IMG/VR virus record: IMGVR_UViG_3300037087_000757
Reading direction: 5' to 3' (one strand)
Length of the DNA stretch: 64,000 nt
DNA from: an uncultured virus (IMG/VR IMGVR_UViG_3300037087_000757)
Lineage: Duplodnaviria > Heunggongvirae > Uroviricota > Caudoviricetes
The notes under the pieces are model-generated. The model was not told where the DNA came from and searched no databases. It worked only from the letters and a program-made list of their open reading frames with translations. Both the position numbers and the translations under genes were made by a program. Below are positions 4,063-40,198 of the stretch, one piece after another. Within the stretch, counting starts at the first letter, position 1; the number at the start of each line of letters is the position of its first letter.

Positions 4063-4064
4063 TT

Positions 4065-4073
4065 TAATATATA
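4065..4073 (+). promoter_or_regulatory. Putative late promoter TAATATATA driving the leader-tagged operon
   Basis: Motif recurs shortly upstream of most leader-tagged or structural-type genes. Confidence 0.65.
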
Positions 4074-4795: not shown

Positions 4796-5632
4796 ATGAT
4801 GACACATTTAAAATTATTTGAAGAATTTTATAATGAATCTATCACAAAAAGTGATCCAGAAAAGGATTATGAAAAAGTTCAAAAATATGATAAAAAAGAT
4901 CAATTAAAATGGTGTCAAATACTTTGGAATTATTATAATAAAACCCTATTTAAAAAAAAATTACCAAATGGAAATATCAGGTTCACTAAAAATATGGGAG
5001 ATAAGTTTAGTACAAGAGGGAATTATAGTCCAACAAAAAATGAAATTGGATTAAATGATCATTTATTTAATGCCACTTTTAATATTTTTAAAAGAACATT
5101 TCTTCATGAAATGTGTCATCAAGCAACCGCAAAAATTAGTGGTGAGGAAAAAGGAGGTCATGGTCCCACTTGGAGAAATTGGATGATGAAAGTTGGACTT
5201 ACTCCAAATGCTCTTGATATTGAAGCGAATGACACATATTTAAATGCTGATGAATTACAAAAAAAACAAATTAAAGATAAGTTAAAAGAAAAAGCCGTTG
5301 AAAAACAAACTCCGACATATCCATCAGAAAACAAATTTGCTAAATGGTTTAGTAAAGAAAATAATAAATGGAACTTGGGAATGATTCTCATACCAAATGA
5401 TCGAGCTGGTGAAAGATGGATATTTTTAAATATAGATGGATATGGAACAGCATATCAAATTGTTCCTTCAACTTGGTTTTTCGAGGTTTCACCTGAAGAA
5501 CTTAAATTATTAACTGATCGTAAACAAAATTTTGATGAAAGAGGTAGCAGAATAATTGAGTATAAAAATAAAAAAGATAGTCATAGAAGTGATATGAGAA
5601 GTCTAAAAAAATATTGGCGTTCTAATTTTTAA
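4796..5632 (+). CDS. SprT-like zinc metalloprotease with CTS-like leader
   Basis: TFLHEMCHQ (HExxH) plus GHGPTW, typical of the SprT family; leader MMTHLKLFEEFYNE. Confidence 0.8.
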   Translation: MMTHLKLFEEFYNESITKSDPEKDYEKVQKYDKKDQLKWCQILWNYYNKTLFKKKLPNGNIRFTKNMGDKFSTRGNYSPTKNEIGLNDHLFNATFNIFKRTFLHEMCHQATAKISGEEKGGHGPTWRNWMMKVGLTPNALDIEANDTYLNADELQKKQIKDKLKEKAVEKQTPTYPSENKFAKWFSKENNKWNLGMILIPNDRAGERWIFLNIDGYGTAYQIVPSTWFFEVSPEELKLLTDRKQNFDERGSRIIEYKNKKDSHRSDMRSLKKYWRSNF

Positions 5633-6411: not shown

Positions 6412-7311
6412 ATGAAGTATTTACAACTATTCGAAAATTTTAGTAAGGAAGATTTTAAAGTCTGGGATGAACTGTTTGGTATTCTCGATTGGAAATTCAA
6501 GTCAACCAAAAACGGTGATATGTCTTTAGATGGTGAATCTACCTATAACGAACTCAAAAATAAATTTCATTTAAAGAAATTTGAACAATATCTTGTTGAA
6601 TCGGTGGCTAAAGATCTGAAGGATTATATCGAAGATGAATATAAAGATGACTTAAAAGATGAATATGGTTTTTATGAAATAAAAGTCGATGATCCCGAAA
6701 AAATAAAAAAACAATTATTAAAAGATTTTGAATCTGGTATAATGAAAATAGATGTAAATGGAAAGAAATTGATAATTTTTAAGAATGATGCGAAATTTGA
6801 TTGTGTAATGTTATACGCAAATGTTGATAAGAAAATGTGGAAAGATATATTAGAACAAATTGATGAAGATGACCTTTACGAAGATCCTGAGGGTGTGGAA
6901 GAATATGGACTTGAAAAAGAACCTCATATAACGATAATATTTGGTATTCATTCAGATGAGAATGACCAAGAAAAAATAATGAAAAAATTAGAAGATTATA
7001 AACCGATTGAATTAAAAACTGGTGAAGTTGGTATGTTTGAAACTGATAAATACGATGTTATTAAGATAGATGTAAAACCAACAAAAGAATTATTAGCTTA
7101 TAGAAAAGATTTAATAGAAAATACAAAGAACACTCAAACCTATGATACATATACACCCCATATGACAATCGCTTATGTTAAAAAGGGCAAAGGAAATAAA
7201 TATATAAAGAAGATAAAGGTAGAAGAAATGGAATTGGAATTTGATACTATCAAATATTCTGATAGTAATTATAAGAAGAAAACAATTAAATTAACTCAGA
7301 ATAAAAAATAA
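6412..7311 (+). CDS. 2H phosphoesterase (T4 gp57B/Acb1-like) with N-terminal and internal CTS-like motifs
   Basis: Two HxT motifs (EPHITI, TPHMTIAY) preceded by CVMLY; leader MKYLQLFENF and internal HLKKFEQYLVE. Confidence 0.75.
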   Translation: MKYLQLFENFSKEDFKVWDELFGILDWKFKSTKNGDMSLDGESTYNELKNKFHLKKFEQYLVESVAKDLKDYIEDEYKDDLKDEYGFYEIKVDDPEKIKKQLLKDFESGIMKIDVNGKKLIIFKNDAKFDCVMLYANVDKKMWKDILEQIDEDDLYEDPEGVEEYGLEKEPHITIIFGIHSDENDQEKIMKKLEDYKPIELKTGEVGMFETDKYDVIKIDVKPTKELLAYRKDLIENTKNTQTYDTYTPHMTIAYVKKGKGNKYIKKIKVEEMELEFDTIKYSDSNYKKKTIKLTQNKK

Positions 7312-8558: not shown

Positions 8559-8957
8559 ATGATAAAAAATTTTAATCAATTTCTCAATGAGAAAGAAATG
8601 TGTTGGAGTATTAAAGAAGAACGACCTATAAAAGTAAAAATTAGAAAAGCGACAGATCGAAGCTCAGGAAACTGGTGGTTGATTGGGGATTCCGAAAAAG
8701 AATATATTATAGAACCAGAACCGATGACAATGACTTATGAAACATATTATAAACTTGGTGATAATCTATCACAAGATCAAATTGATTATGGTTTGAGTAA
8801 TGGGAGAACTTATGATGAAAAAACTTTAAAATATCCAAATGATGTACATAAGGGAACATATGATTATTCTAATGGTGAAACATATTTTGTGGCACCAACA
8901 GAAAAAGATCTCGAAAACTGGTTGAATTTTTATAAAGATGTAGTTGTTAGAATTTAA
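8559..8957 (+). CDS. CTS-leader protein (MIKNFNQFLNE)
   Basis: Leader; TTATATATA at 8528-8536. Confidence 0.65.
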   Translation: MIKNFNQFLNEKEMCWSIKEERPIKVKIRKATDRSSGNWWLIGDSEKEYIIEPEPMTMTYETYYKLGDNLSQDQIDYGLSNGRTYDEKTLKYPNDVHKGTYDYSNGETYFVAPTEKDLENWLNFYKDVVVRI

Positions 8958-8968
8958 TATATAGTTTT

Positions 8969-10284: not shown

Positions 10285-11001
10285 TTAATTTAAAAGAGTT
10301 ACACCAAAGGCGATAATTAATCCCATGATAACAGTTGAAAATTTCTGTATATTATATTTATGATTCTCTCCCGATTCAAAGAGAATCGATGTGGATACAT
10401 GAAGAAAAATACCTATAACCAAAGCCATTGTATAAATGAAAAATGTTTCTAAGGATACTGTTATAGTTGACATTATGTATTTTCCAACCAAAGATCCAAA
10501 AGGTGTCATAAGTGCAAATATGAACAGATACAAAAAAGCTTTTCTTTTCGATAAACCATAATGTAGAAATAAGGCCATTAAAGTCAAAGAGATAGGGATG
10601 TTATGTACAACAATACCCAATACTAATGAATTTTTTATATTGAACATAAACGAAGATAGAATGGGTAATCCCTCTAAAAAAGAGTGAATACATAATCCAA
10701 ACAAAAGTAAAAAAGGTGATATTTTTTCTCCCTCAGAATGAATGTGTTCATGACCATGTTCAGCCCCCTCGGTGATCAATTCCAAAACTAGCTGGATAAC
10801 AAAACCGATTACAATGAATACTCCAGTATAAGGTAATGACTTTTGAAAGACTTCTGGAACTAAATTCATAAAAGTAATTCCAATAAGAAAAGACCCACTA
10901 AAAGCCAATAAAAATTTCAGGAATTTACCTTTGGGTTTGAAATAGAGAATGGAAGAACCACAGATTATAACCGTAATAAAAAGGACAAATAGATATATCA
11001 T
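10285..11001 (-). CDS. ZIP (Zrt/Irt-like) divalent metal transporter
   Basis: About 8 hydrophobic helices, His-rich loop EHGHEHIH, HSFLEG and HNIP metal-site helices. Confidence 0.88.
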   Translation of the reverse strand: MIYLFVLFITVIICGSSILYFKPKGKFLKFLLAFSGSFLIGITFMNLVPEVFQKSLPYTGVFIVIGFVIQLVLELITEGAEHGHEHIHSEGEKISPFLLLFGLCIHSFLEGLPILSSFMFNIKNSLVLGIVVHNIPISLTLMALFLHYGLSKRKAFLYLFIFALMTPFGSLVGKYIMSTITVSLETFFIYTMALVIGIFLHVSTSILFESGENHKYNIQKFSTVIMGLIIAFGVTLLN

Positions 11002-14976: not shown

Positions 14977-15492
14977 TTAAATGAAAATGGACAGTTTAGT
15001 TCTAAATTCAGGATTACTATAAATAACGAAAGTTATTTCTTTTACATGAACTGGTTGACTGTCGTTGAACATCTCCAAGGCTAATATAACCTCATCCAGA
15101 ACTTCATCCTCTGATTTTTCAACAACACCCAACATAACACCCATACGAATCGTTGGAAGTGTGACAGAACTAAGTTCTTGTTTTTCAGCCTCCATCAATC
15201 CACTGAGAATAATTTCATGTAATTTCTTGATTAAATTATCAATGACAAATATGACATTTTGAAATGAATTTTGTGGCTGAAATTGACCACGAATGAAAAA
15301 CGATTTCCCCTCTTGGAATTGATCCATTTGATTTGATAAATCCTGATGAAATTGATTTCCAGATGTTCGAACAATTACATTGTCAATTCCACCAAACCAT
15401 AATCCACTACCATTAATAGCGGTGATAAGAGCACCAGAGGGAACAGTAGATATATCACCAGAGATTACTTTAACATTTAAATTTCCTTTCAT
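14977..15492 (-). CDS. Macrodomain protein (ADP-ribose binding or hydrolase)
   Basis: VISGDIS...ALITAIN..GLWFGGID..I and SVTLPTIRMGV follow the macrodomain pattern, with degenerate N/G loop residues. Confidence 0.75.
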   Translation of the reverse strand: MKGNLNVKVISGDISTVPSGALITAINGSGLWFGGIDNVIVRTSGNQFHQDLSNQMDQFQEGKSFFIRGQFQPQNSFQNVIFVIDNLIKKLHEIILSGLMEAEKQELSSVTLPTIRMGVMLGVVEKSEDEVLDEVILALEMFNDSQPVHVKEITFVIYSNPEFRTKLSIFI

Positions 15493-15700: not shown

Positions 15701-16444
15701 ATGAATAGAATTTATAACCTTAAAAAACAAACCCCAGATGAAAGAGACTTTCAACTAAAATCAATATTGGATGTCCATCCATCTGTGAAAATCACGATGC
15801 CAAAATTATTTACTTTGGTGTCTAAATGTCCACCAATTTATGATCAAGGTAATTTAGGTAGTTGTACAGCTAACGCTGGTGTTGCTGCTCGTGTAATGTT
15901 AAATAGTCTAACTATTAATCTTTCTCGTTTGTTTCAATACTACGAAGAAAGAGTTATTGAGGGAGATCCTACACAAGACGGTGGTGCTCAAATGAGAGAT
16001 ATCGGAAAAGCATTGCAAACATATGGTGTAAGTGAAGAATCATTCTTCCCATATGATATAACCAAATTTGCTAATTCACCCTCAACTTCAGCCGTTACTA
16101 ACGCCCTGAAATATAAAATCAAATCCTATATTTCAGTTACTACACAAGACCAAATTAAGCAAGTCTTAGTATTACAACAAAAACCAGTTTTAATGGGAAT
16201 GGATGTTTATGAATCTTTTGAATCAGCATCCGTTGCAAAAACAGGTAAAGTTCCTCTACCGAAAAAAGGTGAACAACTATTAGGTGGACATGCCGTTCTT
16301 ATCATCGGTTATAACAACGATAAGAAATGGTTCGTCTGCCGTAATTCTTGGGGATCATCTTGGGGAGATCACGGTTACTTCTACCTGCCTTATACATATT
16401 TCACAAAAGGATATGCATATGACTTCTGGGTTCTACAAAACTAA
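15701..16444 (+). CDS. Papain-like cysteine peptidase (family C1)
   Basis: DQGNLGSCTA (Gln/Cys), GGHAV (His), RNSWG (Asn); TTATATATA at 15667-15675. Confidence 0.92.
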   Translation: MNRIYNLKKQTPDERDFQLKSILDVHPSVKITMPKLFTLVSKCPPIYDQGNLGSCTANAGVAARVMLNSLTINLSRLFQYYEERVIEGDPTQDGGAQMRDIGKALQTYGVSEESFFPYDITKFANSPSTSAVTNALKYKIKSYISVTTQDQIKQVLVLQQKPVLMGMDVYESFESASVAKTGKVPLPKKGEQLLGGHAVLIIGYNNDKKWFVCRNSWGSSWGDHGYFYLPYTYFTKGYAYDFWVLQN

Positions 16445-17126: not shown

Positions 17127-19009
17127 TTAAAGAAAAAAGGTCAACTTGGTAATTTCTTTTTCATATTTGGGTTTATTTTGAACAGCTGATTTATAGAATT
17201 CTAACATATCATTTATTGTAACCTTTTTCCAATTATCAAATTTCTTAGTAGGTTTATAATCTGAAGGTATATTCCATCTTTCACGAGTTCCTAAAATAAC
17301 TGATCCATCATCCATGAAAATAGGAAGATATGGTTTAGTCTGGAATGCTTTCCCTTTTTTATAACAAGTATCAAACCATCTTTTTTTAAAAGCGAATTGT
17401 CGGTCTGTCCATTTCCATTCTGGATATTTATTTGAGGTTTCTAAGGGTAAATACCAAACACCGACATTTTCCCACCAACACAATTCACCATCTTCAATAC
17501 TCTCAATGAGATATTTAGTTGAAAAAGAATCTGATGATGGATTTATTTCCTTTAACCATCCTAAATAATACTTCGTTACGGGGGCTGATTGTAACATCAC
17601 CAAACTATCAATGGGAGGATATTCCCTGAGACCATATCCTCCATGAAACGATGAATCTGAACTACCAAGAGAATATGAATATCTATCTTCTTTTTGACCG
17701 AAACATTTTACTGTACAGAAAGCAATGACATAATTCAATATCTCTATTCTCGCTAAATTCCTTGATTCCTTCATACTTTTTTATTTTTTACCTTAGGATA
17801 GACCTTAGATAATAGTTTCCATTCCAGAAAATCAAGTATCTTTATATCAAGACAAATTCGATCCTGATCCTTTTTCCAATCTCTGAATTCTAACATCACC
17901 TCATAACAATCAATTTTATCAAGTGAGTTCGTAAACCAATATAATTTAATATGTGTGGCTTTTCTTATTCCTATTTTGCCCTTTCCACAATAACCATTTT
18001 CTTTAAGGAATTTCATCATATCCTTTTCAAACAATTTTTCGTCTATAAGTGAGAAATTCATAACCAGTAAATTTTCATTTTTAATACCTTGTTATCAACA
18101 CGATTCTTATTAGCCTCTAATTCGTATTCCTCAACCGCTTTCAAGAAATCTTCCTTTCCATACCACCAACCAACAATATGACATTTCTTGGGAACTTCTA
18201 ATTCGTTATAAGCCCTTAAAGATTCTTCCTCTGTTTCAAAAACAAAAGTGTCCTCTAACATCATCTGTGTAACAGCTATCGGATTATAACCGTGTTCACG
18301 AATGATTTTCAAATCTTCTTCGAATTCAACAAGAGATCTATCGTGGTTATACTTTATTTCTTTTTCCATAAAAATCATTCAGAAAGATAATGTTTAAGAG
18401 CTTCCCTGATAGTCTTGAACCAATTCTTTTTCTCAATAAAGAAACTCATTGATACATCAGACACATCTGCTGAAATTGACTGAAAAATTGAACCACTTAT
18501 AGAGAAGTTCCCAGCGTCATCATTTAAGATAGATGGGGACTCACCAAGTCTGGCTAATGATTCAATCATGAAATCCACATCCATACAATTCTGAAAGTCG
18601 ATGATAGTAGTCCTGATTCGTGTGGCTAATTCATCTATTTCTTTGGGTTCTTCATCCATTTCATAACCTGTTTTGATATCCCAGCTTTCATTATAAGCTT
18701 TGAGAAATTCATCTCTCCTTGAAAGTAAAGTTGTAACTTTATATTCGGGTGTATGTAATAAAAATTCATCATCAGGTGTTTCCATACTTTTTATTTTGTT
18801 ATAATGAATTCTTCACGAAAAACTTTTTCAGCGTCCTTCTTAGCTTCACCCATAGTCATATTCTGACCCTGTGATTTCCAACTTTTTACCATCGCTTTGG
18901 CTTCTTCCACAACTCTTACTTTGAGTTGTTCTTTTGTCATTGTCTGTTTTATCATTTCTTTAAATCTTTCATTTGAAAAAGAATAATACCCACACCAGTA
19001 TAAAACCAA
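17127..19009 (-). other. Run of small hypothetical genes
   Basis: Overlapping ORFs 17127..17774, 17771..18061, 18058..18378, 18375..18785, 18791..19009; class I promoter motif at 19082-19112. Confidence 0.75.
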
Positions 19010-19176
19010 AGGTTACTAAACTGGTGAAAAGAAACACATTAAAGAAAATCTTATCTAAATTTTTCATAAGAATTGTTTTCGTAAATATAAAAACAAATTT
19101 TGAAATAAAAAAATCTTTCGTTAAAAAATTAATATATAGAAGAAAAACAACCATCATATATGGAAAAAATAAACAG

Positions 19177-19647
19177 ATGGTAGATGATTTTAAGATGGTT
19201 ATTGAAAATGATGTTTATTTAAAAATTTTAGAATATTATGATATTACCATTTTAGATAAGGAAACGATTTCAAAAATACTGAATGATTTAGTAGATCAAG
19301 GATTTTATGGTTGGGATGATAATGGATGGAGTAGGTATTTATATTTCATGGTAAGTTCGATTTTTTCCAATCCTATCAAAAATGAATTTAAATTCGTAGA
19401 ACTTGATAAGAAATGGGATGATGAAGATAGGGGTGGAGTTGTTTATAATTATTATGAATATGAAGATCCTGAGAATGAAAAATTATTAGAAAATTCCGTT
19501 TACAGGGTTTTATGGGATGTTTTTAAGTATGGTAATAATATAAAGGGAAATGATTATCTTAATAGATTGGAAGATATTAATGAGAAACTAAGGGAAACAT
19601 CAAAAAAATTAATTGAACATATTAGGGAGAATAGTGATGGTGAGTAA
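19177..19647 (+). CDS. Late-type protein with probable CTS-like leader (start revised from 18973)
   Basis: TAATATATA at 19130-19138; first in-frame ATG downstream gives MVDDFKMVIE; possible frameshifted start at 19160. Confidence 0.55.
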   Translation: MVDDFKMVIENDVYLKILEYYDITILDKETISKILNDLVDQGFYGWDDNGWSRYLYFMVSSIFSNPIKNEFKFVELDKKWDDEDRGGVVYNYYEYEDPENEKLLENSVYRVLWDVFKYGNNIKGNDYLNRLEDINEKLRETSKKLIEHIRENSDGE

Positions 19648-19658
19648 ATTTGTAATCA

Positions 19659-20654
19659 TCATTCCATATATTTCCCCTCTGAATTTATTTTCGATAATTT
19701 ATGTTCGGAATTAAAAACTTCCACGATATCCACTGATTTTTGTCTTGGTCGAACTATTATTTCCATTTCCTGTGGAAGAACCGCTTCTCCTTCTAAAAAA
19801 TTATTATTTTTGGCCCAATTGGTATCCAAGAACAATTCGGATGATGGGAATGTATGTTTGAGTACAATACCTATTTCATTTGATTTCATATTTCTTGTAT
19901 CACCCCATCCTTTCTTTCCACTCGCGAACATTCTTGCCACTTTTAAATCCATTGTCCAACTTGGTTTGGAACATATAATTTTATCACCTACTTTTAAGTC
20001 CATGACACTTATAATTCCTCTATTTATTGTTTTGATTTCATTATTTGGTAGAAGTCCTACATTTGGATAATCCATATTAAAGTTCAATCCTCTATATAAG
20101 GTCATTTCATTAACATTAGTAATTAGTTCATTTTTCAGTCCAAGATATTTATTTAATTGTGTCCACCAACCGATTGTACCTCTTTGATATTTCAGCCACC
20201 ATTCTTTTATTTTATTATACTCTTCTTTGGAAAGGGTATACTGCATTTGATTTTTTGATTCTTCTTTGTACATTCTATCAAACAATTCCGTAGGTATTCT
20301 GGAAATGACAAATCCTTTCCATATGTCATTTATATCATATTTTTTCAACCAACTGTTGTCATAATCCAACCATTCTTCTCTTGTTTTGGGTGGATTGAAG
20401 AAGTCAATCAATTCTTTTTTTCCTTTTTCGGTTATTTTCCATTTGTTGTTGATGAAATCGCACAGACCTTCTTTTTTTAATAGTTTAACGGACTCTCCAA
20501 AGGTTATGCCCATTCTATCATCTTTCAACCAACTTTCTTCCATTCCATCAGTTCCGGGCCAATCATATATAAATAACATATACAACCAAGCCATTATTCT
20601 AACTCTGGTTTCTTCATCTTGGTCTGATTCGAATATTTTAAAACTTGTAATCAT
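19659..20654 (-). CDS. R-S-E type ADP-ribosyltransferase-like protein with CTS-like leader (start revised to 20654)
   Basis: MITSFKIFES leader; TLYRGL...PSWTMDLKVARMFA...QEMEIIV; TAATATATA at 20663-20671 (minus). Confidence 0.72.
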   Translation of the reverse strand: MITSFKIFESDQDEETRVRIMAWLYMLFIYDWPGTDGMEESWLKDDRMGITFGESVKLLKKEGLCDFINNKWKITEKGKKELIDFFNPPKTREEWLDYDNSWLKKYDINDIWKGFVISRIPTELFDRMYKEESKNQMQYTLSKEEYNKIKEWWLKYQRGTIGWWTQLNKYLGLKNELITNVNEMTLYRGLNFNMDYPNVGLLPNNEIKTINRGIISVMDLKVGDKIICSKPSWTMDLKVARMFASGKKGWGDTRNMKSNEIGIVLKHTFPSSELFLDTNWAKNNNFLEGEAVLPQEMEIIVRPRQKSVDIVEVFNSEHKLSKINSEGKYME

Positions 20655-20682
20655 ACAAAGGGTATATATTAAAACTTTAACA

Positions 20683-22362
20683 CTATACCCCATTATTGAG
20701 TTTAGGTTTTGGTAATTTAAATTTCTTTACGAAGTCTGGTTTTATATCAGTTCTTTCCCAGAACCACCAATTCCAAAAATCACTCCAATTTTTATTACTT
20801 CTGATTATATCATAATCTATTGTATGATATACCATTATATTTTCGGGTGGAATTGATTCGAGAGTATAAACACCATCTTCATTTACTGAGGCTGGATCAC
20901 GATATAATTGAATATCCTTGGTATTCACTTTCAAAATAACCCAATCTGTTTTATATTCCTTAACACCATAACCAATCATTAGATTTCTTTTATGATTGAA
21001 TAATTGTCGTGCTATTTGAGTAGCACCTTTCGTTGATTTTGATAAATAGATTGCGGTTGGCTCCCAATCACGATGGGTTGGTGGGTTTTGAGGTGTCAGA
21101 CCATGTTTTAATATGTCGTTTACATTTTTCAGTGGTGTTACATGAAAACAAGTGTTAATTTTAACGGGTTTAGATCCATATTTGAAATTCATTGTTTCAA
21201 CCCAAGAAAGTTCACCAAATTCTTCTGGTGTAATTTCTTTTTCGAATAAGTTAAAATTGGTTATCATATGTTCACTATACATGAGTTGTCTTTGTTGTAG
21301 GGTGAGTTTGGGTTTACTTACATTAATATTTCTCTTACCACTATACCATTCGATAGGAATGAATTTATGAATGGAAAATATTATATTACCCATTTTTATT
21401 TCTTTTTCTTTCGATTCAAATTTATCAAAATCGGGGTGGTCTAATTTCCATCCTTTCCCATTATTTCTTTTACTTATTTCGATAATATAATTATTATTCC
21501 ATATTTCGATTTTCAATTTATCTTCCAAATCATTTATAATTCTATCAAATTCATATTTTTTCGGAAAATCCCAAAATGAGATTACTTTATGTTTTGTCCA
21601 TATACGACCTTGATTTTTTATTTTAGAAAATTTAATTCCATAAATATCATCTTCAATTTTATAAAACATATCATTATGATTCCCAGATTTCTCACCTACA
21701 TATAATTCACCATCATAATATACAAAAGGAATAGCATCTGGGGATTCGTGTGTGATTTTTCTCCCATTAGGTAAATTAACAAAATCCCCCGATGATTCGA
21801 ATACTTTTTTTTCACTATACATGAGTTGTCTTTGTTGTAGGGTGAGTTTTGGTTTACTACCTGAGAAATTTCTACTATACCATTCGATAGGTATAAATTT
21901 GACAAAGGTGAAGTCATCTTCACTCCACGATATCACTTGTGTTTCAGGAACTTCTATTTTTTCATAATCGGGATGATTATATTCCCATTCTTTACCTTTT
22001 CCGTATTTAGACTTTTCAATTTCGATTTGATATTCTTGATGCCATATTTCTTTTTTCAATTTATCTTCTAAATCGTCTATAATCTTATTGAATTCATGTT
22101 TACTTGGATAATCCCAAAAGGATATTATTTTACTTTTTGTCCAAATACGACCACGATAGACGGTTTTTTTCCAAATATCAGCATATTCATCTCCTGTTTC
22201 TTCTTCAATTTTATCAATCATATCACCATGAGTAGAGGAATATTCACCAATATAAAAATCTCTCTTATAATAGAGAAAAGGTAAACTATCTGGATCTGAT
22301 TCGTTAATATATTTACCTGATGGTAATTTGATTGTATCTGATTGTGATTCGAATATTCTCAT
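20683..22362 (-). CDS. Three-module protein: two about 180-190 aa repeats plus a C-terminal His-type ART/Tpt1-like domain, each preceded by a CTS-like motif
   Basis: MRIFES / KKVFES / MITNFNLFE; both repeats end KPKLTLQQRQLMYSE; C-domain FHVT..NV..ILKHGL...AIYLS...VILKV...IPPENI. Confidence 0.7.
   Translation of the reverse strand: MRIFESQSDTIKLPSGKYINESDPDSLPFLYYKRDFYIGEYSSTHGDMIDKIEEETGDEYADIWKKTVYRGRIWTKSKIISFWDYPSKHEFNKIIDDLEDKLKKEIWHQEYQIEIEKSKYGKGKEWEYNHPDYEKIEVPETQVISWSEDDFTFVKFIPIEWYSRNFSGSKPKLTLQQRQLMYSEKKVFESSGDFVNLPNGRKITHESPDAIPFVYYDGELYVGEKSGNHNDMFYKIEDDIYGIKFSKIKNQGRIWTKHKVISFWDFPKKYEFDRIINDLEDKLKIEIWNNNYIIEISKRNNGKGWKLDHPDFDKFESKEKEIKMGNIIFSIHKFIPIEWYSGKRNINVSKPKLTLQQRQLMYSEHMITNFNLFEKEITPEEFGELSWVETMNFKYGSKPVKINTCFHVTPLKNVNDILKHGLTPQNPPTHRDWEPTAIYLSKSTKGATQIARQLFNHKRNLMIGYGVKEYKTDWVILKVNTKDIQLYRDPASVNEDGVYTLESIPPENIMVYHTIDYDIIRSNKNWSDFWNWWFWERTDIKPDFVKKFKLPKPKLNNGV
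21271..21849. repeat. 39-bp exact direct repeat, 540 bp apart, at module junctions
   Basis: TTCACTATACATGAGTTGTCTTTGTTGTAGGGTGAGTTT at 21271 and 21811. Confidence 0.95.
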
Positions 22363-22446
22363 ACAAGTATATATTTTTTTTAAGGAATGAAAATTATTTT
22401 TGGGATTCAGATTTTAATATATAAAGAAAAATAATACGGATCAATC

Positions 22447-22944
22447 ATGGCATCATTAGAAGAAGTCTGGAAAAAGATAGAAGAACAAAGGTTAGCTAAA
22501 TTAGAACAGGAAAAAATCGAAGAACAGAAAGTCTTAGAGAATTATGAAAAACAAAGACAATTCTGGATGAATGAACGTAAGTTATATGAAGCTTCAGCCT
22601 CGGCTGCAGCGGGAGCTGGTGCTGGTGGTGGAGGTGGTGGAAATGCCACACGAAGAAATGTTGCTGTTGTACCAACTGGTTTCAATGTCAGGTTTAATGT
22701 TACGGATAATTATAGTTCTATTATGGTTAACGCTGGTGTTTTTTTAGGTGACAATAGTGGAACTACTGATACGGATGGTAATTGTGTATTTACTAATATT
22801 CCAGAAACACTCGCAATGGAATGGACAATAACCAAATTAGGTTGGAGTCCTTTGGGTGGAGTTGTTGATGTAATTGCTGGTAATGTAGATGGAATTACTG
22901 GTTATATTGAACTCCCCGAAATGTTGACGAAAATAGAAAAATAA
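22447..22944 (+). CDS. Late protein: coiled coil, Ala/Gly linker and beta-rich carboxypeptidase-regulatory-like domain (possibly virion-associated)
   Basis: TAATATATA at 22415-22423; SAAAGAGAGGGGGG linker; GTTDTDGNCVF motif. Confidence 0.55.
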   Translation: MASLEEVWKKIEEQRLAKLEQEKIEEQKVLENYEKQRQFWMNERKLYEASASAAAGAGAGGGGGGNATRRNVAVVPTGFNVRFNVTDNYSSIMVNAGVFLGDNSGTTDTDGNCVFTNIPETLAMEWTITKLGWSPLGGVVDVIAGNVDGITGYIELPEMLTKIEK

Positions 22945-23121
22945 TCAGAATGGTTTATTTTTCGAGATTTTGAATCCTAAGATACCTAAATAAGTTAGAG
23001 CACTTAGTAATATTATTATCCATTTAGGTAATAATAATATAAAAAGAATGAATCCTATTGGTATTGTTAATGACAACAGGAAGCTTTTTAAATTTACTTT
23101 AAACCAATTTTTCATAATCAT
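22945..23121 (-). CDS. 58-aa two-helix membrane protein (not in ORF track); paralog of 23321..23494
   Basis: Translates as MIMKNWFKVNLKSFLLSLTIPIGFILFILLLPKW...KNKPF. Confidence 0.7.
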   Translation of the reverse strand: MIMKNWFKVNLKSFLLSLTIPIGFILFILLLPKWIIILLSALTYLGILGFKISKNKPF

Positions 23122-23126
23122 ATGTT

Positions 23127-23321
23127 TTATTTTTTAATATATCTGTTTAATCCGACATTCCATTTATGGTTACATTGAGGACAGAATCGGAAGAATGGAC
23201 CAAATTTACCAATTGGTGAAGCATTACATTTAGGACATTTTGGAATTAGTTCATCATCGACATCATCTTTTGAATGATAATTTTCTTTAATATATTCAGT
23301 GAATTTTTTTAAATTTTTCAT
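23127..23321 (-). CDS. Zinc-ribbon protein with CTS-like leader
   Basis: MKNLKKFTEYIKE; CPKC...CPQCNHKW. Confidence 0.7.
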   Translation of the reverse strand: MKNLKKFTEYIKENYHSKDDVDDELIPKCPKCNASPIGKFGPFFRFCPQCNHKWNVGLNRYIKK

Positions 23322-23494
23322 TAGAATGTTTTATTTTTTATAATTTTATCACTCAATATACTTATATAAATAAGAATGACTAATACTGAGGTAACAACAT
23401 CAGTGGTTAGAAATATAATTAAAATAAGTCCTATTGGTATTGTTAATGAAATCAAAAAATTTCTTAAATTATCCTTAAACCATTTCTTAATCAT
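23321..23494 (-). CDS. 57-aa two-helix membrane protein (not in ORF track)
   Basis: Translates as MIKKWFKDNLRNFLISLTIPIGLILII...KNKTF. Confidence 0.7.
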   Translation of the reverse strand: MIKKWFKDNLRNFLISLTIPIGLILIIFLTTDVVTSVLVILIYISILSDKIIKNKTF

Positions 23495-23724
23495 TTTTCT
23501 TCTGTCGTTTTTTTCTCAGTCGATTTTTTGTCATCTTTTGTGGCACTATTAACGAGTTTTTCCCATTCACTTTTTCCCATTTTTTTTATCATTTTCTTAA
23601 ATTGTTTGGGATCTGTTTCTTGGATATGAAGAAAGTATCTATAAAGGTTTTTCCAATTAGGTTCTAAGTTAATGATTTCTGATTCATTAATTTTTCCTTC
23701 TTTTAAGTAGTTGGTAAATTTGAT
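23491..23724 (-). pseudogene. 5'-truncated CTS-leader gene
   Basis: Open frame IKFTNYLKEGKINESE...TTEEK* lacking a start codon ahead of the leader-like motif; stop overlaps next ATG (ATGA). Confidence 0.55.
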
Positions 23725-24332
23725 TCATTATCACTATATGACATTAATCCATCCAAATCTTCTATAACTGTTAATATTGGTGTATTTGATTCTATTTTTC
23801 TAAATACTTGTGGAACAAAATTCATATAAGTTTTTAAATCATCATTATTTTTTAAAGAAAAAACAATACCACCTAAATTAACGATAGTATTAGCTAATAA
23901 TGCACAAAGACAAGTTTTACCACATCCCGGTTCACCATATAATAATATTCCACGCTTATAAGCATATTTATATTTTTTGAATAATTTCTCGTTATTCCAA
24001 AAAAACTTCATATCCTCAAGAATCATATTAAATTCATCAATGGGAAGATATAGCAATTCATCCAAATACATTTTTTGTGGATTTAAAAAATAACACTGAC
24101 GATTACCATCATAATCTATTTGATAATTTCCGGGTAATATTTTATCAACTAAAACAACTTTTCCTGTTGGATAATATCCATTTGGTCTTGATATCCATTG
24201 ACATAATGTTTCTTCGTTTTTTTGAGTAGGTCGGTCTGGTTCTTCAGTACATTTAATAGGCTCATCTGATACTAATTGATCTTGTTTAAGACCAACCGTA
24301 TCACCCATTTCCATTTGTTTTTTTCTATTCAT
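23703..24332 (-). pseudogene. C-terminally truncated AAA+ ATPase
   Basis: YKRGILLYGEPGCGKT (Walker A) and VIEDLD (Walker B), then a stop about 15 aa later with no sensor-1 or arginine finger. Confidence 0.7.
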
Positions 24333-25178
24333 AATAAATTTAAATTTAAACTTATTGTTTTTATTTCTTGTGTAGTTCTTTATATTTCTGATCAATATAA
24401 ACCAATTCCCTACGATGACATTCATCCATGATCTTCTGAATGTCCTTTTGAGAAATTACTTCTCCATTCGCGTCCATAATTACATAACCCTGTGATGGAA
24501 CACCCCAGATGGCTTTTACCAGATATTCTAACTCTCCTAAGGTTTGAATTGTATCTAAGGAAATAACAGAAGAAGCATCATAATCAACATATATCGCACC
24601 TCCTACTTGTTCATATTCAACTTCAACTATTTCATTCTTATCCGAGAAGATCCTGACATATAAATTCTGAGATTCATTAATCCTTTTTACATATCTTTTA
24701 TTGGTCTCATAATATGTTTCCAAACTAAACCCATTATCAATCAAAAACTTTTCTACATTTTTATCTTTTACATCATCATTATTAAATATGACAGAATTAG
24801 CATATCTCATCATAAGTTGCATAAATTTCAGCGGTGCAACATGATAAAATATACTATTAGGATCAGTACAGGGAATTTCTTTATATTCTGGTTGAGAATA
24901 TAAAAACTCTTTTACTTTTTCAATTGTATTTTCCATATTATTTATTTTCTGTTTAAGCACTCTGAACAATATAACTTTTCTAATCCAACATAATCATCAT
25001 CCACAATAAATCCTATGATGTTTTCACATCCATTACTACTACATTTTTGACGATGAACCACATTTGGCTTATCACAATCACACTTCGCTCCCCATAACGC
25101 GGATTCATACTCTTTTCCACAATTTAAACAAATATCTTCCATATCTTCCATATCTTCTTCCTTTCTATGCTTTTTTAA

Positions 25179-25645: not shown

Positions 25646-25867
25646 CTGACAACACTACCCCTCTGACCTGTCCATTATCTTGTCATCTTCAATATCAAAA
25701 TAAAAATCCACACTCTCACTCCATTCATCATATACAGTAACCCTATTGTAACTGTTCTCCAACTCAACATCATACTTTATCTTCAATTGAGTCAATGTGT
25801 CTTTCATTAATTGTAAATCCGTCATATAAAATTACTTCACATTCCTTTTTTAATATATACATTCATT

Positions 25868-26353
25868 ATGATAAAAAGTTTTAGAATCTTCGAATCAAAT
25901 AAAGGTCTTGAATCCTTTACTGTCTATCATGGTTCAAATGAAGAACATGATTTTTCAGAAACAGGTAAACATTATCAACTTGGTGGAACTTTCTTTTCAG
26001 AAGATAAAAATGAAGCTAAATCACATGGTAAATTCCTCTATGAAATCCAGCTTAAACCTACTATTGACTTATTTAGTACTATCAATCTATCTGATTGTGA
26101 AAAACTAATAAAACATTGCGAAATCTTATATGATGATTATTTTGATGAAGATGTCGATCCAGATAACTATTTTATAAAAACACCAGAACAACTATCCAAC
26201 CATACCGATAACTGGAACGCTATCGAAAAAACTCCCGGTGTACTGGATTGGTTACATCATTATGACGGTGCTATAATTACTGAAGGTGGTTGTTTAAACA
26301 TTCTTATATTCGACCCCGTAATGGAAAAAATACAATCATATAAACTATTATAA
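25868..26353 (+). CDS. His-type ADP-ribosyltransferase-like (ART-PolyVal-like) protein with CTS-like leader
   Basis: MIKSFRIFES; VYHGS...GTFFSEDKNEA..HG...LYEIQL...YDGAII; TAATATATA at 25851. Confidence 0.7.
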   Translation: MIKSFRIFESNKGLESFTVYHGSNEEHDFSETGKHYQLGGTFFSEDKNEAKSHGKFLYEIQLKPTIDLFSTINLSDCEKLIKHCEILYDDYFDEDVDPDNYFIKTPEQLSNHTDNWNAIEKTPGVLDWLHHYDGAIITEGGCLNILIFDPVMEKIQSYKLL

Positions 26354-26418: not shown

Positions 26419-27867
26419 TTAGATTTTTAATCCATTTACTGAATTCAATTCCGTCACTATTTCCTTTACCCTGCGTAAATACCTCAATCGTTCAATAGTG
26501 GTGAATACTTCGATTAACCTCAATTTGAAATCATTAAAGTTATCATATCCGAATTCCACAGCCATCTGCGTGTTAAACTCCTTCTTCTTATCCCAATCAT
26601 ACCTCTTTATGGTGAAATTCGTTTTCAAATTTAACTTCTTTGTGAAATATTGTACATATAAAGTAGATGTCGGTAAATAATCATTTACATGCTTCCTGAC
26701 ATTACTATTCCCTTCTTCCATTCCCTTTACTAACTTATATACATCATTTATCCTTTTTACCAATTCTTGTTTCTTACCATCCAATATCGTTGTATGTTCT
26801 ACAACATTAAAATCCTTAAATAATTCCTTTAACTCACCCATATGTTTATCTACCATTTTTACCATATCATCATATTTCCCCATAACTTCTTTTAAGGATT
26901 CTACATTATACTCGTAATAACTACGGATCTTCTCACTGATATCAATATCCTGAACTAATTCCTTAATCCCCTTATCTAAAGTGATATACCTATCATATTT
27001 GTTTACATCCTCATCGAAAAATGTCTTTACATCTATCTCACCCTGCTTATTGTACATCTTTACTATTCGACACACATATTCCCCCTTATCCATTATAACT
27101 TCATTTTCATCTCCATGTTTAAAGAATCCTATCTCCCCCTCCAATAAATCAAAATCTATTACTATATCCTTCGGTTTGGCCATAATAGATATAATTACTC
27201 CCAATTCTCCATCTATATACCTATCATTCCTCGATAACCAGTTTAAAGTCGCGGTAAATGTACTGGTTTGTTCACTGAAACGTGCAAAACCCTCAGCTAT
27301 CTTCTTACTATGAGTCCATGAAGATACTTTGTCAAATTCCATATTCAAAATATCCGTTCCTTGCTTTATACAATTAAGAAACTTCTGTCCATACGCCATC
27401 TCCCCTTTGTAAGTTTTCTCCAAGTGATACTTGTTGAATAATAAACCACGATATAAGACAATAGGATTCTTGGGTCTAAGTGACGATATTCGCTTTACTT
27501 CCTCAACGGTTTCTCTACTCAAACTTCTGTGTTTATAAGAATTGACGAAATTTAATACTGTTCTATTCACCTGTTTGTTAAACTCACTAATTAACTTCTT
27601 TATATCATCTATTATCCACTGTTTTTCAATATAATCCTGTAACTTCTTACTTCTTAGGTTCTTAAAATCATAGCTATCCTTGAAAAAATCCATTACTTGT
27701 TGATTGTTGAAAAAATAATATTTTAAGGTATCCACGAAATTTTTATTCAAAGTAGGATTTTCTATCTTACTGAATAATGGTTTCAATACATCTTGCTTCT
27801 TCATATTCTTTATCACATCCTCTTTGGGAAGATTTGAAGCTTCAAATAAAGTAAATCTGGTTATCAT
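26419..27867 (-). CDS. R-S-E type ADP-ribosyltransferase-like protein with CTS-like leader and helical C-terminus
   Basis: MITRFTLFEA; VLYRGL...VSSWTHSKKIAEGFA...DENEVIM; TAATATATA at 27874-27882 (minus). Confidence 0.75.
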   Translation of the reverse strand: MITRFTLFEASNLPKEDVIKNMKKQDVLKPLFSKIENPTLNKNFVDTLKYYFFNNQQVMDFFKDSYDFKNLRSKKLQDYIEKQWIIDDIKKLISEFNKQVNRTVLNFVNSYKHRSLSRETVEEVKRISSLRPKNPIVLYRGLLFNKYHLEKTYKGEMAYGQKFLNCIKQGTDILNMEFDKVSSWTHSKKIAEGFARFSEQTSTFTATLNWLSRNDRYIDGELGVIISIMAKPKDIVIDFDLLEGEIGFFKHGDENEVIMDKGEYVCRIVKMYNKQGEIDVKTFFDEDVNKYDRYITLDKGIKELVQDIDISEKIRSYYEYNVESLKEVMGKYDDMVKMVDKHMGELKELFKDFNVVEHTTILDGKKQELVKRINDVYKLVKGMEEGNSNVRKHVNDYLPTSTLYVQYFTKKLNLKTNFTIKRYDWDKKKEFNTQMAVEFGYDNFNDFKLRLIEVFTTIERLRYLRRVKEIVTELNSVNGLKI

Positions 27868-27932
27868 GATGATTATATATTAAAATTTGTTATAAAAAAT
27901 TAATATATAGAAGAAAAACAATTTCTCTCGTT

Positions 27933-28600: not shown

Positions 28601-28679
28601 TAGTCGAATTTAGATCCCTTGAGGATTGGATATAAAGCTCTTGACCATTTGGAAATACGAAATGAAAATTTAATATATA

Positions 28680-30456: not shown

Positions 30457-30496
30457 ATATATATATATTAAACTTTTGTTGTATTATTTCATATAA

Positions 30497-37507: not shown

Positions 37508-39676
37508 AATTTTGTTTTTTATGATTTTGAATAAATATAAGTAATTGTTCTGGAATAAAAAAATATATTCAAACAAAGGGGTGTATTTTTTATATAAATA
37601 GAGTGTGAATTGTTTATCAATAGATATAAAAAAAGATTAAGGATGGAATTAGAAGAGATGAAAAAATTAGGTTATTCTATTGAATTTCCTATGTTGGAGA
37701 AGATAGAGGATTTAATATATTACGAAGGACCGCTTTTATCTCTATTTAAGAGGAAAGATGAAGATATATTCTATTTCTATTATTGGATAGATATGGATAA
37801 GACTTCTAATAGGTGGTTAATTTTTGAAGTATCTCAGGATGATATAACTAATTTTAAGGAGAAAAATGACACCATCATTTTAAAGGATTTGATTTTAAAA
37901 TCGAATAATTTATGGATTGATGATATTTCTGATGGTTTGGATGATTTAAATGATTTAAATCATGATTTTAGATATGTAGAAAAGAAAGAAATTATTAATT
38001 ATTTAAAATATAAGGTATGAAAAAGGTCAAGTTAATTAAGTTATTTGAAGCTGAAAATCCTCGTCATCCTAATAATATTCCAGAGGGTTTTGTTAAAGAG
38101 GGATATCCAATAAATGAACCAACGGTAGGTGAATCATTTCTTATGAATACTGATGATGGGGATGGATGGCACACTTCGATTGTTCAGGAAATATTTGAGG
38201 ATGGTACATTCAAGACTTTTAATTCTATTTATAAAATTGTAAGAGAATGAGATACATAGCTAAAATAGATAGAAGAATAAAAGCGAGCATGAATGGTAAT
38301 TGGATACTTCACTCATATGGTACTACAAAAAAGAGACCAAGAATTAAAAAAATAATTCGAACTGATACTAAAATCATTCTCGAAACAACATAAAAACAAT
38401 GAGTCCAGAGAAAAGAGGGATTAAAGTAGAACATTTTCCTATGTGGATACAATTGTCTAATCCACATTTAAATGATATTTTAAATCAAGATGGATACTTA
38501 TGTCTTAATAATTTGACAAAACAAGTTTATGTAATGCCATACAAAAGGAATAAAATAAATCAATAGAATATGGTAAAACCGATTAAACCGAATGAGGTTG
38601 TTAGTATTAAACTGGATAATATTCCAGATGAATTGATTGAAGCGATTAATGAATTAATCGTTAAGAAGTGGGACGGATATTCCGCTGTAGTACTTCAAGA
38701 AGATATTGAAAAGCTATTTCTTAAAAAATATCCGAATGTAAAGGAAGCTAAAAAGAAGATGTACGAAGAACACTGGATGGATTTCGAGGATATTTTTCGT
38801 AAAGAGGGTTGGTCTGTTAAGTTTGATAAGCCCGGCTACGATGAATCTTATGATGCTTATTTCGAATTCAAGCCAAAAAAGAATAAAGAAGGTTTCGAAG
38901 CAAAGGACTAATTATTTTTTAATTTTTAGAGTGTAGTTATTTTTTTATTTCGGATATTTTACTTATATTCATTTCAATTGTAAAATGACTTTATATGAAA
39001 ACACAAGAAGTAATAAAGTGGGAATCTGGTGCAGATTATTCAACAAAAACAATTGAACTATTAACTAAGAAGTTAACGGAATTGATTGGAGAGGGATATA
39101 CTATTGATAATGTTATACCAACAGAATATTACGGGAGTAATATCGCGTGTATAACCAGAGCACTTATCATTGTAAGTATATAGAAAGGGAAATAGTTATG
39201 ATGATATTTAGTGGATGTGTATTATTATTTCTCATTATAGTGATTATATTTTTTGGATCAAAAGGTTTGAGATAAATATGAAGCCTATATTCATGTTCAA
39301 AATTTATTAAAAGATAAAACGAATACTACTTATTATATCAATGAATATAAACAAATAGAAGATTAAAAATGATAACAAGAGAACAAATAGAAAACGCCCT
39401 TACTGATGATAGGGATAGTGTTTTCAAACAAGACGAGGATCATGGAATGAAGGTGGTCACACTTTTAAGAAATAAAATACCGTATTCCGAATGTCATAGT
39501 ATACTTGTCGGGGCATCACACGATCAAATATATCTACCTGATATTGGTATGATTATTAAGTATATTGATGAGAGTGATTTGTCAGTTCTTGTGGATTGTA
39601 ATTCGTTTATTGACGAAGATAATGATTGTCTTTCATTATATGTTTAATATGTTTAATTTTAGTAAGAAGTAAGTGT

Positions 39677-40198
39677 ATGAATCAATCGATTGATAACGAA
39701 AGTCAAATATTTTTTTACGAACAGAATTATTATCCATTTTCCAATTTTTCATCTTTTCAAGTGAATTGGAAAGGGTATCAATGGATGACCTCTGAACATG
39801 CTTATCATTCGGAAAAGTTTATTAATCATCCTGAGATCATAGAATTATTAAAACAAACGACATCAGCACATGATGCGTTTAAAATCGCTATGAAGAATAA
39901 GGATAAGTATCTTGAAAATTGGGATGATATTAAACTTGGCATCATGGAACAAATACTTTTAGCTAAAGTGGAACAACATCCATATGTCAGGAAGAAATTA
40001 TTTGATAGTGGAGATAAAGAATTAATTGAAAATTCATGGAGAGATTCATATTGGGGATGGGGTGAAAACAAAGATGGTGAAAATCATCTGGGTAAATTGT
40101 GGATGAAAATCAGAACAGATTTAAGATCAGATATGAGATTTAATACAAAAAATGAATTTCCTCCCGTTTCAATTTATCATGATTTTAATCAAGTATAA
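39677..40198 (+). CDS. NADAR (YbiA-like) family protein (start revised to 39677)
   Basis: FSNF, TSEHAYHSEKF, WDDIKL.IM..IL.AK..QHP, LIENS..DSYWG, GENHLGKLWMKIR. Confidence 0.9.
   Translation: MNQSIDNESQIFFYEQNYYPFSNFSSFQVNWKGYQWMTSEHAYHSEKFINHPEIIELLKQTTSAHDAFKIAMKNKDKYLENWDDIKLGIMEQILLAKVEQHPYVRKKLFDSGDKELIENSWRDSYWGWGENKDGENHLGKLWMKIRTDLRSDMRFNTKNEFPPVSIYHDFNQV

Follow-up and report, generated by a model that had tools for sequence, protein, structure and literature searches.

The window analysed here is a 64,000-nt stretch of DNA from an uncultured virus (IMG/VR record IMGVR_UViG_3300037087_000757; Caudoviricetes), and the gene at issue is the minus-strand open reading frame (ORF) at 20683..22362, stop codon included, whose 559-residue product, P0001, is built from three consecutive units. 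Module 1 (M1; residues 1-184, 21811..22362, minus strand, as are all features of this gene) consists of an orphan alpha/beta domain and a tail and is 54% identical to module 2; its domain is seen in an AlphaFold2 (AF2) model. Module 2 (M2; residues 185-364, 21271..21810), supported by alignment and AF2, is a second copy of the same domain and tail, whereas module 3 (M3; residues 365-559, 20686..21270), recognised from stand-alone homologs and a fold match, combines an internal leader with a domain of predicted ADP-ribosyltransferase (ART) fold, the core of which covers approximately residues 392-520 (20803..21189) in the VIA-align and Foldseek comparisons. The three unit starts named in the original prediction are all present: MRIFES at residues 1-6 (22345..22362), the short form of the N-terminal leader and module start motif; KKVFES at residues 185-190 (21793..21810), the start motif of M2; and HMITNFNLFE at residues 365-374 (21241..21270), the internal leader of M3, whose DNA (CAT ATG ATA ACC..) retains the string ATGATAA. 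M1 and M2 close with the same 15-residue peptide, KPKLTLQQRQLMYSE, at residues 170-184 (21811..21855) and 350-364 (21271..21315), and the final 13 residues, KLTLQQRQLMYSE, are encoded by an exact 39-bp repeat whose copies lie at 21811..21849 (copy 1) and 21271..21309 (copy 2), 540 bp apart, as had been claimed.

The description of M1 and M2 as diverged repeats is likewise borne out by their alignment, in which 99 of 185 aligned residues are identical (54%; BLASTP E 1e-64), and because tandem copies are the rule in the family to which both modules belong, the pair is a tandem duplication and not a fusion of two unrelated genes. The closest homolog, P0002, has the three-unit layout of P0001 at 46% identity; M1 and M2 are 42-56% identical to its two modules with no clean pairing by which the duplication could be dated. 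It is very probable that P0001 is one real fusion protein of three cassettes, the form of a cassette being an N-terminal leader ending in h-x-E (h, hydrophobic), a folded domain, and a flexible linker with a conserved tail ending in Y-x-E. P0001 matches no family in Pfam, PHROGs, NCBIfam or PADLOC and carries no peptidase domain of its own; neither tblastn of the protein nor megablast of positions 18000-25000 returned a match among 50,697 phage records, and no cultured-phage relative emerged.

The AF2 model of the whole protein, computed from 117 sequences, has a mean predicted local distance difference test score (pLDDT) of 74.6 and a predicted template modelling score (pTM) of 0.42. M1 (approximately residues 7-163) and M2 (approximately residues 192-341) are modelled at pLDDT above 90 as separate alpha/beta domains, while the tails appear as short helices (residues 175-183 and 355-364) which, together with their linkers, reach block pLDDT values of 33-57 (57 and 43 for the first tail, 45 over residues 351-360 for the second). 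Values below 50 are seen at residues 1-5, 183-190 and most of 346-378 (segments 346-353, 355-357, 359-361 and 363-378). Both junctions are predicted to be exposed, low-confidence linkers between separate domains without a fixed arrangement, and not parts of a single fold in which they would be buried. A complex prediction of M2 and its tail with the product of the leader-tagged gene at 25868..26353, described below, scored 0.00 against a mark of 0.34 and hence gave no verdict.

The domain repeated in M1 and M2 represents a large, uncharacterised viral domain family without a match in Pfam, the PDB or BFVD. A profile built from nine modules retrieved 1033 cluster representatives (50% clusters) with E<=1e-3, of which 109 reached E<=1e-30, and 129 of 159 module-hit proteins carry two or more copies, up to a maximum of 11, in a set that was taken as the top of a list ranked by total score and hence favours multi-copy proteins. 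The search for stand-alone units also succeeded, in that lone modules occur as separate proteins (P0018, P0019, P0022 and P0023), as does M3 (see below). The family is present in 25 IMG/VR loci, with a G+C content of 20-29% in the eight loci measured; the related viral records are contigs of 35-235 kb with CheckV completeness of 10-33%, from which genomes of roughly 250-700 kb follow, and the protein cluster of P0001 lists a contig that, at 736,551 bp, falls within the size range of huge phages. A strict DNA pattern for the core motif had 0 matches in 185,579 prokaryote genomes, a pattern narrow enough that absence of the family from cells is not implied. Scans with a pattern for the junction gave 0 matches in IMG/VR and three in metagenome contigs, of which only L001 is a relative; the other two, L002 and L003, were rejected as chance pattern matches in unrelated genes.

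Modelled alone, the module reaches a pLDDT of 87.5 and a pTM of 0.81, and it has no close structural counterpart in the collections searched: the best values were E 0.18 against the PDB (Foldseek), Z 4.3 against 48,161 chains (VIA-align; Stay-Green, 7y5y_B, with GNAT-like folds at Z 3-3.8) and E 0.1 against BFVD, a search of PDB sequences with the module profile gave only a chance match at 0.28, and an ESM Atlas search with M1 returned no usable match. A Stay-Green (Mg-dechelatase) identity of the module was considered and rejected, both of its weak, independent pointers, the Z of 4.3 and a match to PF12638, being below the trusted threshold; the latter was seen in a gene of another locus (L017:3607-9141), where the module near residues 1161-1189 matches PF12638 at 25 bits against a cut-off of 27. 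Four residues of the module are invariant (H45, G71, R72 and K78) and six nearly so (E5, F29, W83, P86, E114 and Y162), which points to a putative binding or active site.

Family-wide alignments place the conserved peptides of P0001 in a different light. Among 284 aligned module starts the motif [LI]-x-E-[SN]-P-D recurs, with L or I at position 3 in 261/284, E at position 5 in 279/284, S or N at position 6, P at position 7 (219/284) and D at position 8 (238/284), and the same motif stands at 113 protein N-termini as well as at 173 internal repeats. Judged from these alignments, the FES of M1 and M2 is the start motif of the module family itself and so provides no independent evidence that a leader restarts in these two units. 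The tail, in turn, follows the logo KK.PLxWRQAhY(S/Q/A)E and then S or N (n=101; the final E is present in all 101 by construction of the search pattern), and in many members of the family it comes after a linker of the G(F/W/Y)GS type. After a full tail, which 122 modules possess, comes another module in 54 cases, a different domain in 33 and the end of the protein in 35, and since 35 of 122 tails sit at free C-termini, the peptide is more than a joint; it is the family's own, portable C-terminal tail, found again behind an unrelated non-module domain in P0006 and P0009. Tail and next module are 5-14 residues apart, and in one subfamily the spacer reads ..I-T-K-F-x-x-F.., that is, the N-terminal leader minus its Met. 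In P0001 itself the candidate Glu-ending sites are ..IFE and ..VFE, each before S, ..LFE before K, and ..YSE before K or H.

M3 has stand-alone homologs that begin with the leader. One with 72% identity (P0016) begins MVTKFQIFEKE and a second (P0162) begins with the leader MIMITDFKIFEKE, while a third homolog (P0163) is preceded by a further extension that is itself leader-tagged. All four M3 sequences agree in F6, F9 and E10 of the leader, whether the leader is terminal or internal. The core of M3 in the full-length model superposes on the C-terminal lobe of Tpt1/KptA (chain residues 84-180) with VIA-align Z 9.3-8.3 and root-mean-square deviations of 2.3-3.4 A over 86-93 residues; the best row is 8tfi (Z 9.3, 2.5 A over 86 residues) and the 14 top rows are all Tpt1/KptA, while Foldseek on the core gave E 1.5e-3 and a probability of 1.00. 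Weaker matches, over residues ~390-520, are also ARTs (pertussis toxin S1, Z 7; DarT, Z 5-5.6; diphtheria toxin, Z 5; PARPs, Z 4.4-4.7), and the Atlas leads for M3 were DarT/PARP, Arr and Tox-ART-HYD1 at 0.91-0.92. At the sequence level, M3 found only PARP in Pfam at E<=5 (E 0.23), with no match to the Tpt1/KptA family model, and no Tpt1 among PDB sequences at E<=5. The N-terminal RNA-binding lobe of Tpt1/KptA holds part of the catalytic residues; it has no counterpart in M3, where only about 30 residues precede the matched core. Because this lobe is absent and a sequence-level match is lacking, M3 is, as far as the model goes, an ART-fold domain related to the NAD lobe of Tpt1/KptA but no member of the Tpt1 family. 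H407, S441 and E495 (positions 43, 77 and 131 of M3) are invariant in the four sequences and are candidate NAD-site residues.

How M3 came to be attached can be read from unfused relatives. Four consecutive leader-tagged genes occur in L028 (L028:2730-6355) and three in L016 (L016:5139-6399), and L001 has a fused gene flanked on either side by one leader-tagged gene; an untagged ORF additionally separates the fused gene from its upstream leader-tagged neighbour. Every gene border in these arrays reads TTATGATAA, in which the stop codon TGA overlaps ATG ATA, and the ATGA-type overlaps in the L028 and L016 arrays suggest translational coupling. At the M2/M3 joint of the window the DNA reads GAA CAT ATG ATA ACC, so that the ATGATAA start signature is now in frame. 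Because the unfused arrays carry TTATGATAA and the window joint keeps ATGATAA in frame, the proposal that whole leader-tagged genes were concatenated is supported by the DNA for M3 at least, which by this signature is a once separate, downstream and presumably translationally coupled gene; the proposal does not extend to M1-M2, a tandem duplication. The fusion in L001 reads CAT ATT ATT ACT and leads into a C-terminal domain unlike M3. The L028 array ends in a gene (MKTKFKMFESNNKLTLYHGS..) similar to the window gene at 25868.

The leader is not restricted to P0001. The window has a G+C content of 30%, many short genes, few family matches and no tRNA genes. Of its 137 ORFs, 10 (0.8 expected) carry the leader core at most six residues from the start Met, in front of proteins as different as a SprT-like protein, a 2H protein, a weak ART-PolyVal/AcrIF11-like protein, the module, M3 and proteins without an assignment. 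The next gene downstream of P0001 (19659..20654, minus strand) starts MITSFKIFES and has no family match; its product may be read as having the R-S-E look of an ART, and neither this protein nor M3 found anything useful among PDB sequences. Further leader-tagged genes start MIKSFRIFES (25868..26353, plus strand), with sub-threshold matches to ART-PolyVal (PF18760, E 3e-4, 22 bits, cut-off 31.2) and to an AcrIF11-type ART (NF052490, E 4.4e-5, 24.4 bits, cut-off 50); MTHLKLFEEF (4799..5632, plus strand), a SprT-like metalloprotease (Pfam E 1.5e-14, over the cut-off); MKYLQLFENF (6412..7311, plus strand), a 2H or 2'-5' RNA ligase-type phosphoesterase (Pfam E 2.6e-13, over the cut-off); and MITRFTLFEAS (26419..27867, minus strand; 482 residues, no family).

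We rank first the reading that P0001 is a packaged and processed multi-effector protein, because the leader pattern resembles the capsid-targeting sequence (CTS) of phage T4, both conserved peptides end in Glu, polyvalent proteins provide a precedent and virion genes are among the neighbours of related loci. Leader and tail would act as the CTS does on the T4 internal proteins and Alt, directing their protein to the capsid and marking it for processing. P0001 would be taken up by the prohead of a huge myovirus-type phage and be cut after Glu, at the exposed ..YSE and ..(L/I/V)FE sites, by a prohead protease; the pieces, injected together with the DNA, would then act in the host as early effectors. 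To this statement as a whole, in which the packaging, the cleavage and the effector role of the three-cassette fusion are steps that we infer, we assign a probability of about 40%. The start motif and the tail both end in Glu, followed by S or N, and the prohead proteases of T4, phiKZ, 201phi2-1 and SPN3US are described as all cutting C-terminal to Glu, as does every characterised enzyme of this type (PMC5694885). According to PMC9026906, the T4 CTS is a 10-residue N-terminal propeptide on otherwise unrelated internal proteins, removed by the prohead protease, and T4 Alt, itself an ART, loses propeptides at both ends; for polyvalent phage proteins it has been proposed that they travel with the DNA and that proteolysis frees their domains (Iyer et al. 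2017, PMC5512222). As to virion genes, a T4-type portal gene (L020:3865-6882; PF07230, E 6.9e-64) immediately follows the gene in L020 that combines the module with HD_4, and the L017 locus sits between adaptor-like and baseplate-wedge genes.

Several points weigh against this reading. The search for a prohead protease found none in 72 window ORFs and, with PF03420 (Peptidase_S77), none in five related records, a weak negative given that the completeness of these records is only 10-33% and that the control genomes, too, yielded no match. The 20 kb beyond the L020 portal contain no head-maturation genes, virion genes adjoin only two of the eight annotated related loci (L020 and L017), and in the window itself no link was seen between P0001 and head or packaging genes close by. 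Rather than marking a cleavage site, the near-invariant Glu of the start motif might have a structural or catalytic role; module 2 of P0002 comes directly after the tail (..LMYAE-NCD..), without a separate h-x-E; the model of M3 is only moderately confident in the ART core (pLDDT 40-76); and the tail is conserved over approximately 15 residues, far beyond a three-residue protease site. The consensus of the T4 prohead protease is L/I-x-E, whereas P3 of the tail is mostly Y. The residue given for SPN3US and phiKZ at this position, A/S/G, differs as well (PMC5694885). Within the window, a papain-family C1 cysteine protease gene lies at 15701-16444 on the plus strand (E 5.8e-19, over the Pfam cut-off), and its product or the SprT-like protein of 4799-5632 could be considered as alternative candidate cassette-processing enzymes.

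A wider formulation would turn these elements into a two-ended cassette grammar, in which any domain placed between a leader (MITKFxLFE or h-L-x-E-S-P-D) and a tail (PLxWRQAhYxE) would be packaged, cassettes would be strung by stop/start fusion into polyproteins of up to 11 units that the head protease would recut to single effectors, and the orphan module would be the commonest cargo; we regard this generalisation as rather unlikely, albeit not far-fetched.

The alternative that survives best, a tentative but serious one, is that P0001 is an unprocessed multidomain cytoplasmic enzyme whose modules bind a substrate (e.g., RNA or tRNA ends) or regulate the ART domain, leader and tail being linker or capping elements. 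Elsewhere the modules are fused to enzymes of RNA ends and nucleotides, namely a CCA-adding-type nucleotidyltransferase, 2H, HD_4, a cytidylyltransferase, GNAT and WYL_2, with a PolyA_pol head at E 2.7e-34 and 1.2e-31 and also CTP_transf_like and NTP_transf_2 (Pfam); a PolyA_pol gene adjoins the L004 locus and an S1-domain gene the L017 locus; and such partners would fit an unpackaged RNA-repair or NAD enzyme of the cytoplasm equally well as packaged cargo. The closeness of M3 to the RNA 2'-phosphotransferase fold, the invariant module residues, which suggest a ligand or active site, and the missing protease in the 72 window ORFs and five related records would all be in keeping with an enzyme that stays in the cell. 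Such an enzyme does not account for the recurrence of one leader on proteins of unrelated kinds, in 10 of 137 ORFs where 0.8 would be expected, nor for the retention of the tail at 35 C-termini and behind non-module domains. It also sits uneasily with arrays of up to 11 modules without a Pfam-detectable enzyme (L005, with six modules, contains 0 Pfam families; P0024, P0033 and P0035, with 3 to 8 modules each, were outside the Pfam scan) and with the AF2 model, whose pTM of 0.42 indicates no fixed arrangement of modules and M3.

An improbable alternative is that the conserved border DNA is a recombination handle, allowing cassettes to be duplicated, deleted or swapped as in polymorphic toxin genes, with the peptide incidental. 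The exact repeat, for which 100 dinucleotide-preserving shuffles gave a mean of 0.00 matches, invites this thought: the DNA identity of M1 and M2 outside the repeat is 49-87% per 15-codon bin, and both copies share the rare codons CTC, ACC and CTA, where the relative L001 uses others for the same peptide. The Pro codon immediately ahead of the repeat already differs between the copies (CCA/CCC). Identical degenerate residues use the same codon in 13 of 14 cases in the junction and in 59 of 78 (76%) elsewhere in M1 and M2, a weak difference (Fisher p = 0.29; p = 0.035 for an unbroken run of 12 degenerate codons), and given these values, a conserved peptide combined with a strong codon bias accounts for most of the DNA identity. 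Tail variants agree within one protein (YSE/YSE in the window, YAE/YAE in P0002, FSE/FSE in P0009), and such uniformity, together with the shared rare codons, suggests either homogenised copies or a common reader; the joint ..SE-H-(M/I)-IT.., moreover, leads into different C-terminal domains in the window and in L001, as a site of exchange might. Against a DNA-level function, the 13 junction codons (39 nt) of L001 and the window encode the same 13 residues with seven synonymous and no non-synonymous differences, so that conservation between genomes is at the level of the peptide, pointing to selection on the peptide; no DNA-level conservation of the joint was seen in this comparison. Of the two roles initially offered for the junction peptide, a signal or a recombination joint, it is hence the former that is favoured. 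Contigs of four runs contain no alternative joints, insertions, deletions, duplications or length variants at the repeats, contigs being a form of data that drops rare variants.

A still less probable alternative is docking, by which the tail of one cassette would bind the leader of another to form non-covalent effector chains, the fused genes being a covalent version of the same arrangement. The conserved peptides always stand at opposite ends of a cassette and come within 5-14 residues of each other in fusions, both are predicted to be short helices on flexible linkers, and cassette genes lie in arrays that appear translationally coupled; neither peptide, however, packs confidently in the AF2 monomer models.

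That the ORF is an artefact, produced by mis-assembly across the repeat or read-through of a pseudogene, has a negligible probability even though assemblies do break at the 39-mer, since either flank of each repeat is matched by contigs of three further runs with 0 differences, P0002 shows the same three-unit architecture at 46% identity, and the 559 codons are open with M1 and M2 predicted to fold at high confidence. The three runs (X6, X11 and X12, labelled peat metagenome, whose three studies may be one campaign) cover the gene with 0 differing letters, and it is this letter-for-letter match that argues against an assembly artefact; the break is inferred from a 39-letter contig of run X6 that spans exactly 21811-21849. 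One contig of an RNA library, which may be DNA, covers 20547-20697, mostly the 5' end of the neighbouring gene and only the last 15 bases of the P0001 gene.

Comparison of the packaged-effector reading with known systems delimits what is new. With the T4 internal proteins IPI-III and Alt, P0001 and its neighbours share a short N-terminal peptide on unrelated, fast-evolving proteins that ends in hydrophobic-x-Glu, and a cargo that includes an ART; Alt is trimmed at both ends (PMC9026906), and here a second Glu-ending peptide stands at the C-termini of cassettes. The differences are that there is no sequence similarity, that the conserved 15-residue tail has no T4 counterpart, that cassettes form chains of up to 11, and that protease and packaging are putative for P0001. 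Polyvalent proteins, as described in PMC5512222, resemble P0001 in uniting several effector-type domains, duplicated and shuffled, in one phage polypeptide; P0001 has three folded units, M3 with its putative ART fold among them, and a neighbouring leader-tagged gene weakly matches ART-PolyVal, but P0001 lacks a peptidase domain and the domains of the described repertoire, and its joints are conserved peptides rather than anonymous linkers. Tpt1/KptA shares with M3 the NAD-binding C-lobe, which superposes on the core, and the 2H and nucleotidyltransferase co-fusions of the module family correspond to RNA-repair partners reported for KptA (PMC9503650); the match is nonetheless to the C-lobe only, with no room for the N-terminal RNA lobe and no Pfam or PDB sequence match. 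The ejection proteins of SPN3US and phiKZ are paralogous head proteins with propeptides in which the prohead protease cuts several Glu-ending sites, yet their motif is A/S/G-x-E, the propeptides are often longer than 100 residues (PMC5694885), and tblastn revealed no homology to P0001. A search of the literature (by motif words, and topically by titles and abstracts) brought no account of module, leader or tail to light. In encapsulin cargo, a short conserved loading peptide at the C-terminus is joined to the folded domain by a flexible linker rich in Gly and Ser, an analogy to the cassettes in layout only. CTS-tagged internal proteins and polyvalent proteins represent the known kind of system; new within it are the domain family, cassettes with a conserved peptide at each end, and their fusion into chains.

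Nearly all knowledge of huge phages comes from metagenomes, and the majority of their genes lack an assigned function; what is defined here is an orphan family, a portable leader and tail that also flank unrelated enzymes, and a clear fusion of neighbouring genes. If the peptides are packaging and processing signals, sequence alone would suffice to list the effectors that uncultivated huge phages inject, giving virome proteomics a concrete target; otherwise, the module would still constitute a new domain with links to enzymes of RNA ends and to NAD-dependent ones.

Beyond the gene itself, a toolkit of NAD and ADP-ribose functions is spread across the window, comprising Macro (14977-15492, minus strand, E 1e-5) and NADAR (39626-40198, plus strand, E 6.2e-28), both over the Pfam cut-offs, as well as the 2H gene at 6412-7311 (plus strand) and the sub-cut-off ART-PolyVal/AcrIF11-like gene at 25868-26353 (plus strand). 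The motif TTAATATATA is present in 10 copies, with 2.2 expected and 0 of 100 shuffles reaching 10, at 4064-4073, 8954-8963, 19129-19138, 20663-20672 (minus strand), 22414-22423, 25850-25859, 27874-27883 (minus strand), 27900-27909, 28670-28679 and 30462-30471 (minus strand). In the eight copies for which a downstream ORF was located it lies 0-23 nt upstream of the start, and five copies precede leader-tagged genes; P0001 has a variant, AATATATAC, 4 nt ahead of its ATG. The motif looks like a promoter of one class of genes, and a spacing of 0-8 nt may indicate leaderless mRNAs. The divergent neighbour of P0001 (22447-22944, plus strand) has no family match and encodes an Ala/Gly run (..ASASAAAGAGAGGGGGGN..). 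In related loci, the L020 portal gene has a match to an intein-splicing domain below the cut-off (27.3 bits against 35.8), and L013:1532-2755 is a gene of the TnpB/IS605 OrfB type (PF01385 and PF07282) on a contig classed as a provirus by IMG/VR. The phage-like window, lastly, encodes a homolog of ZIP-family zinc transporters at 10285-11001 on the minus strand (PF02535, E 5.4e-23, over the cut-off).

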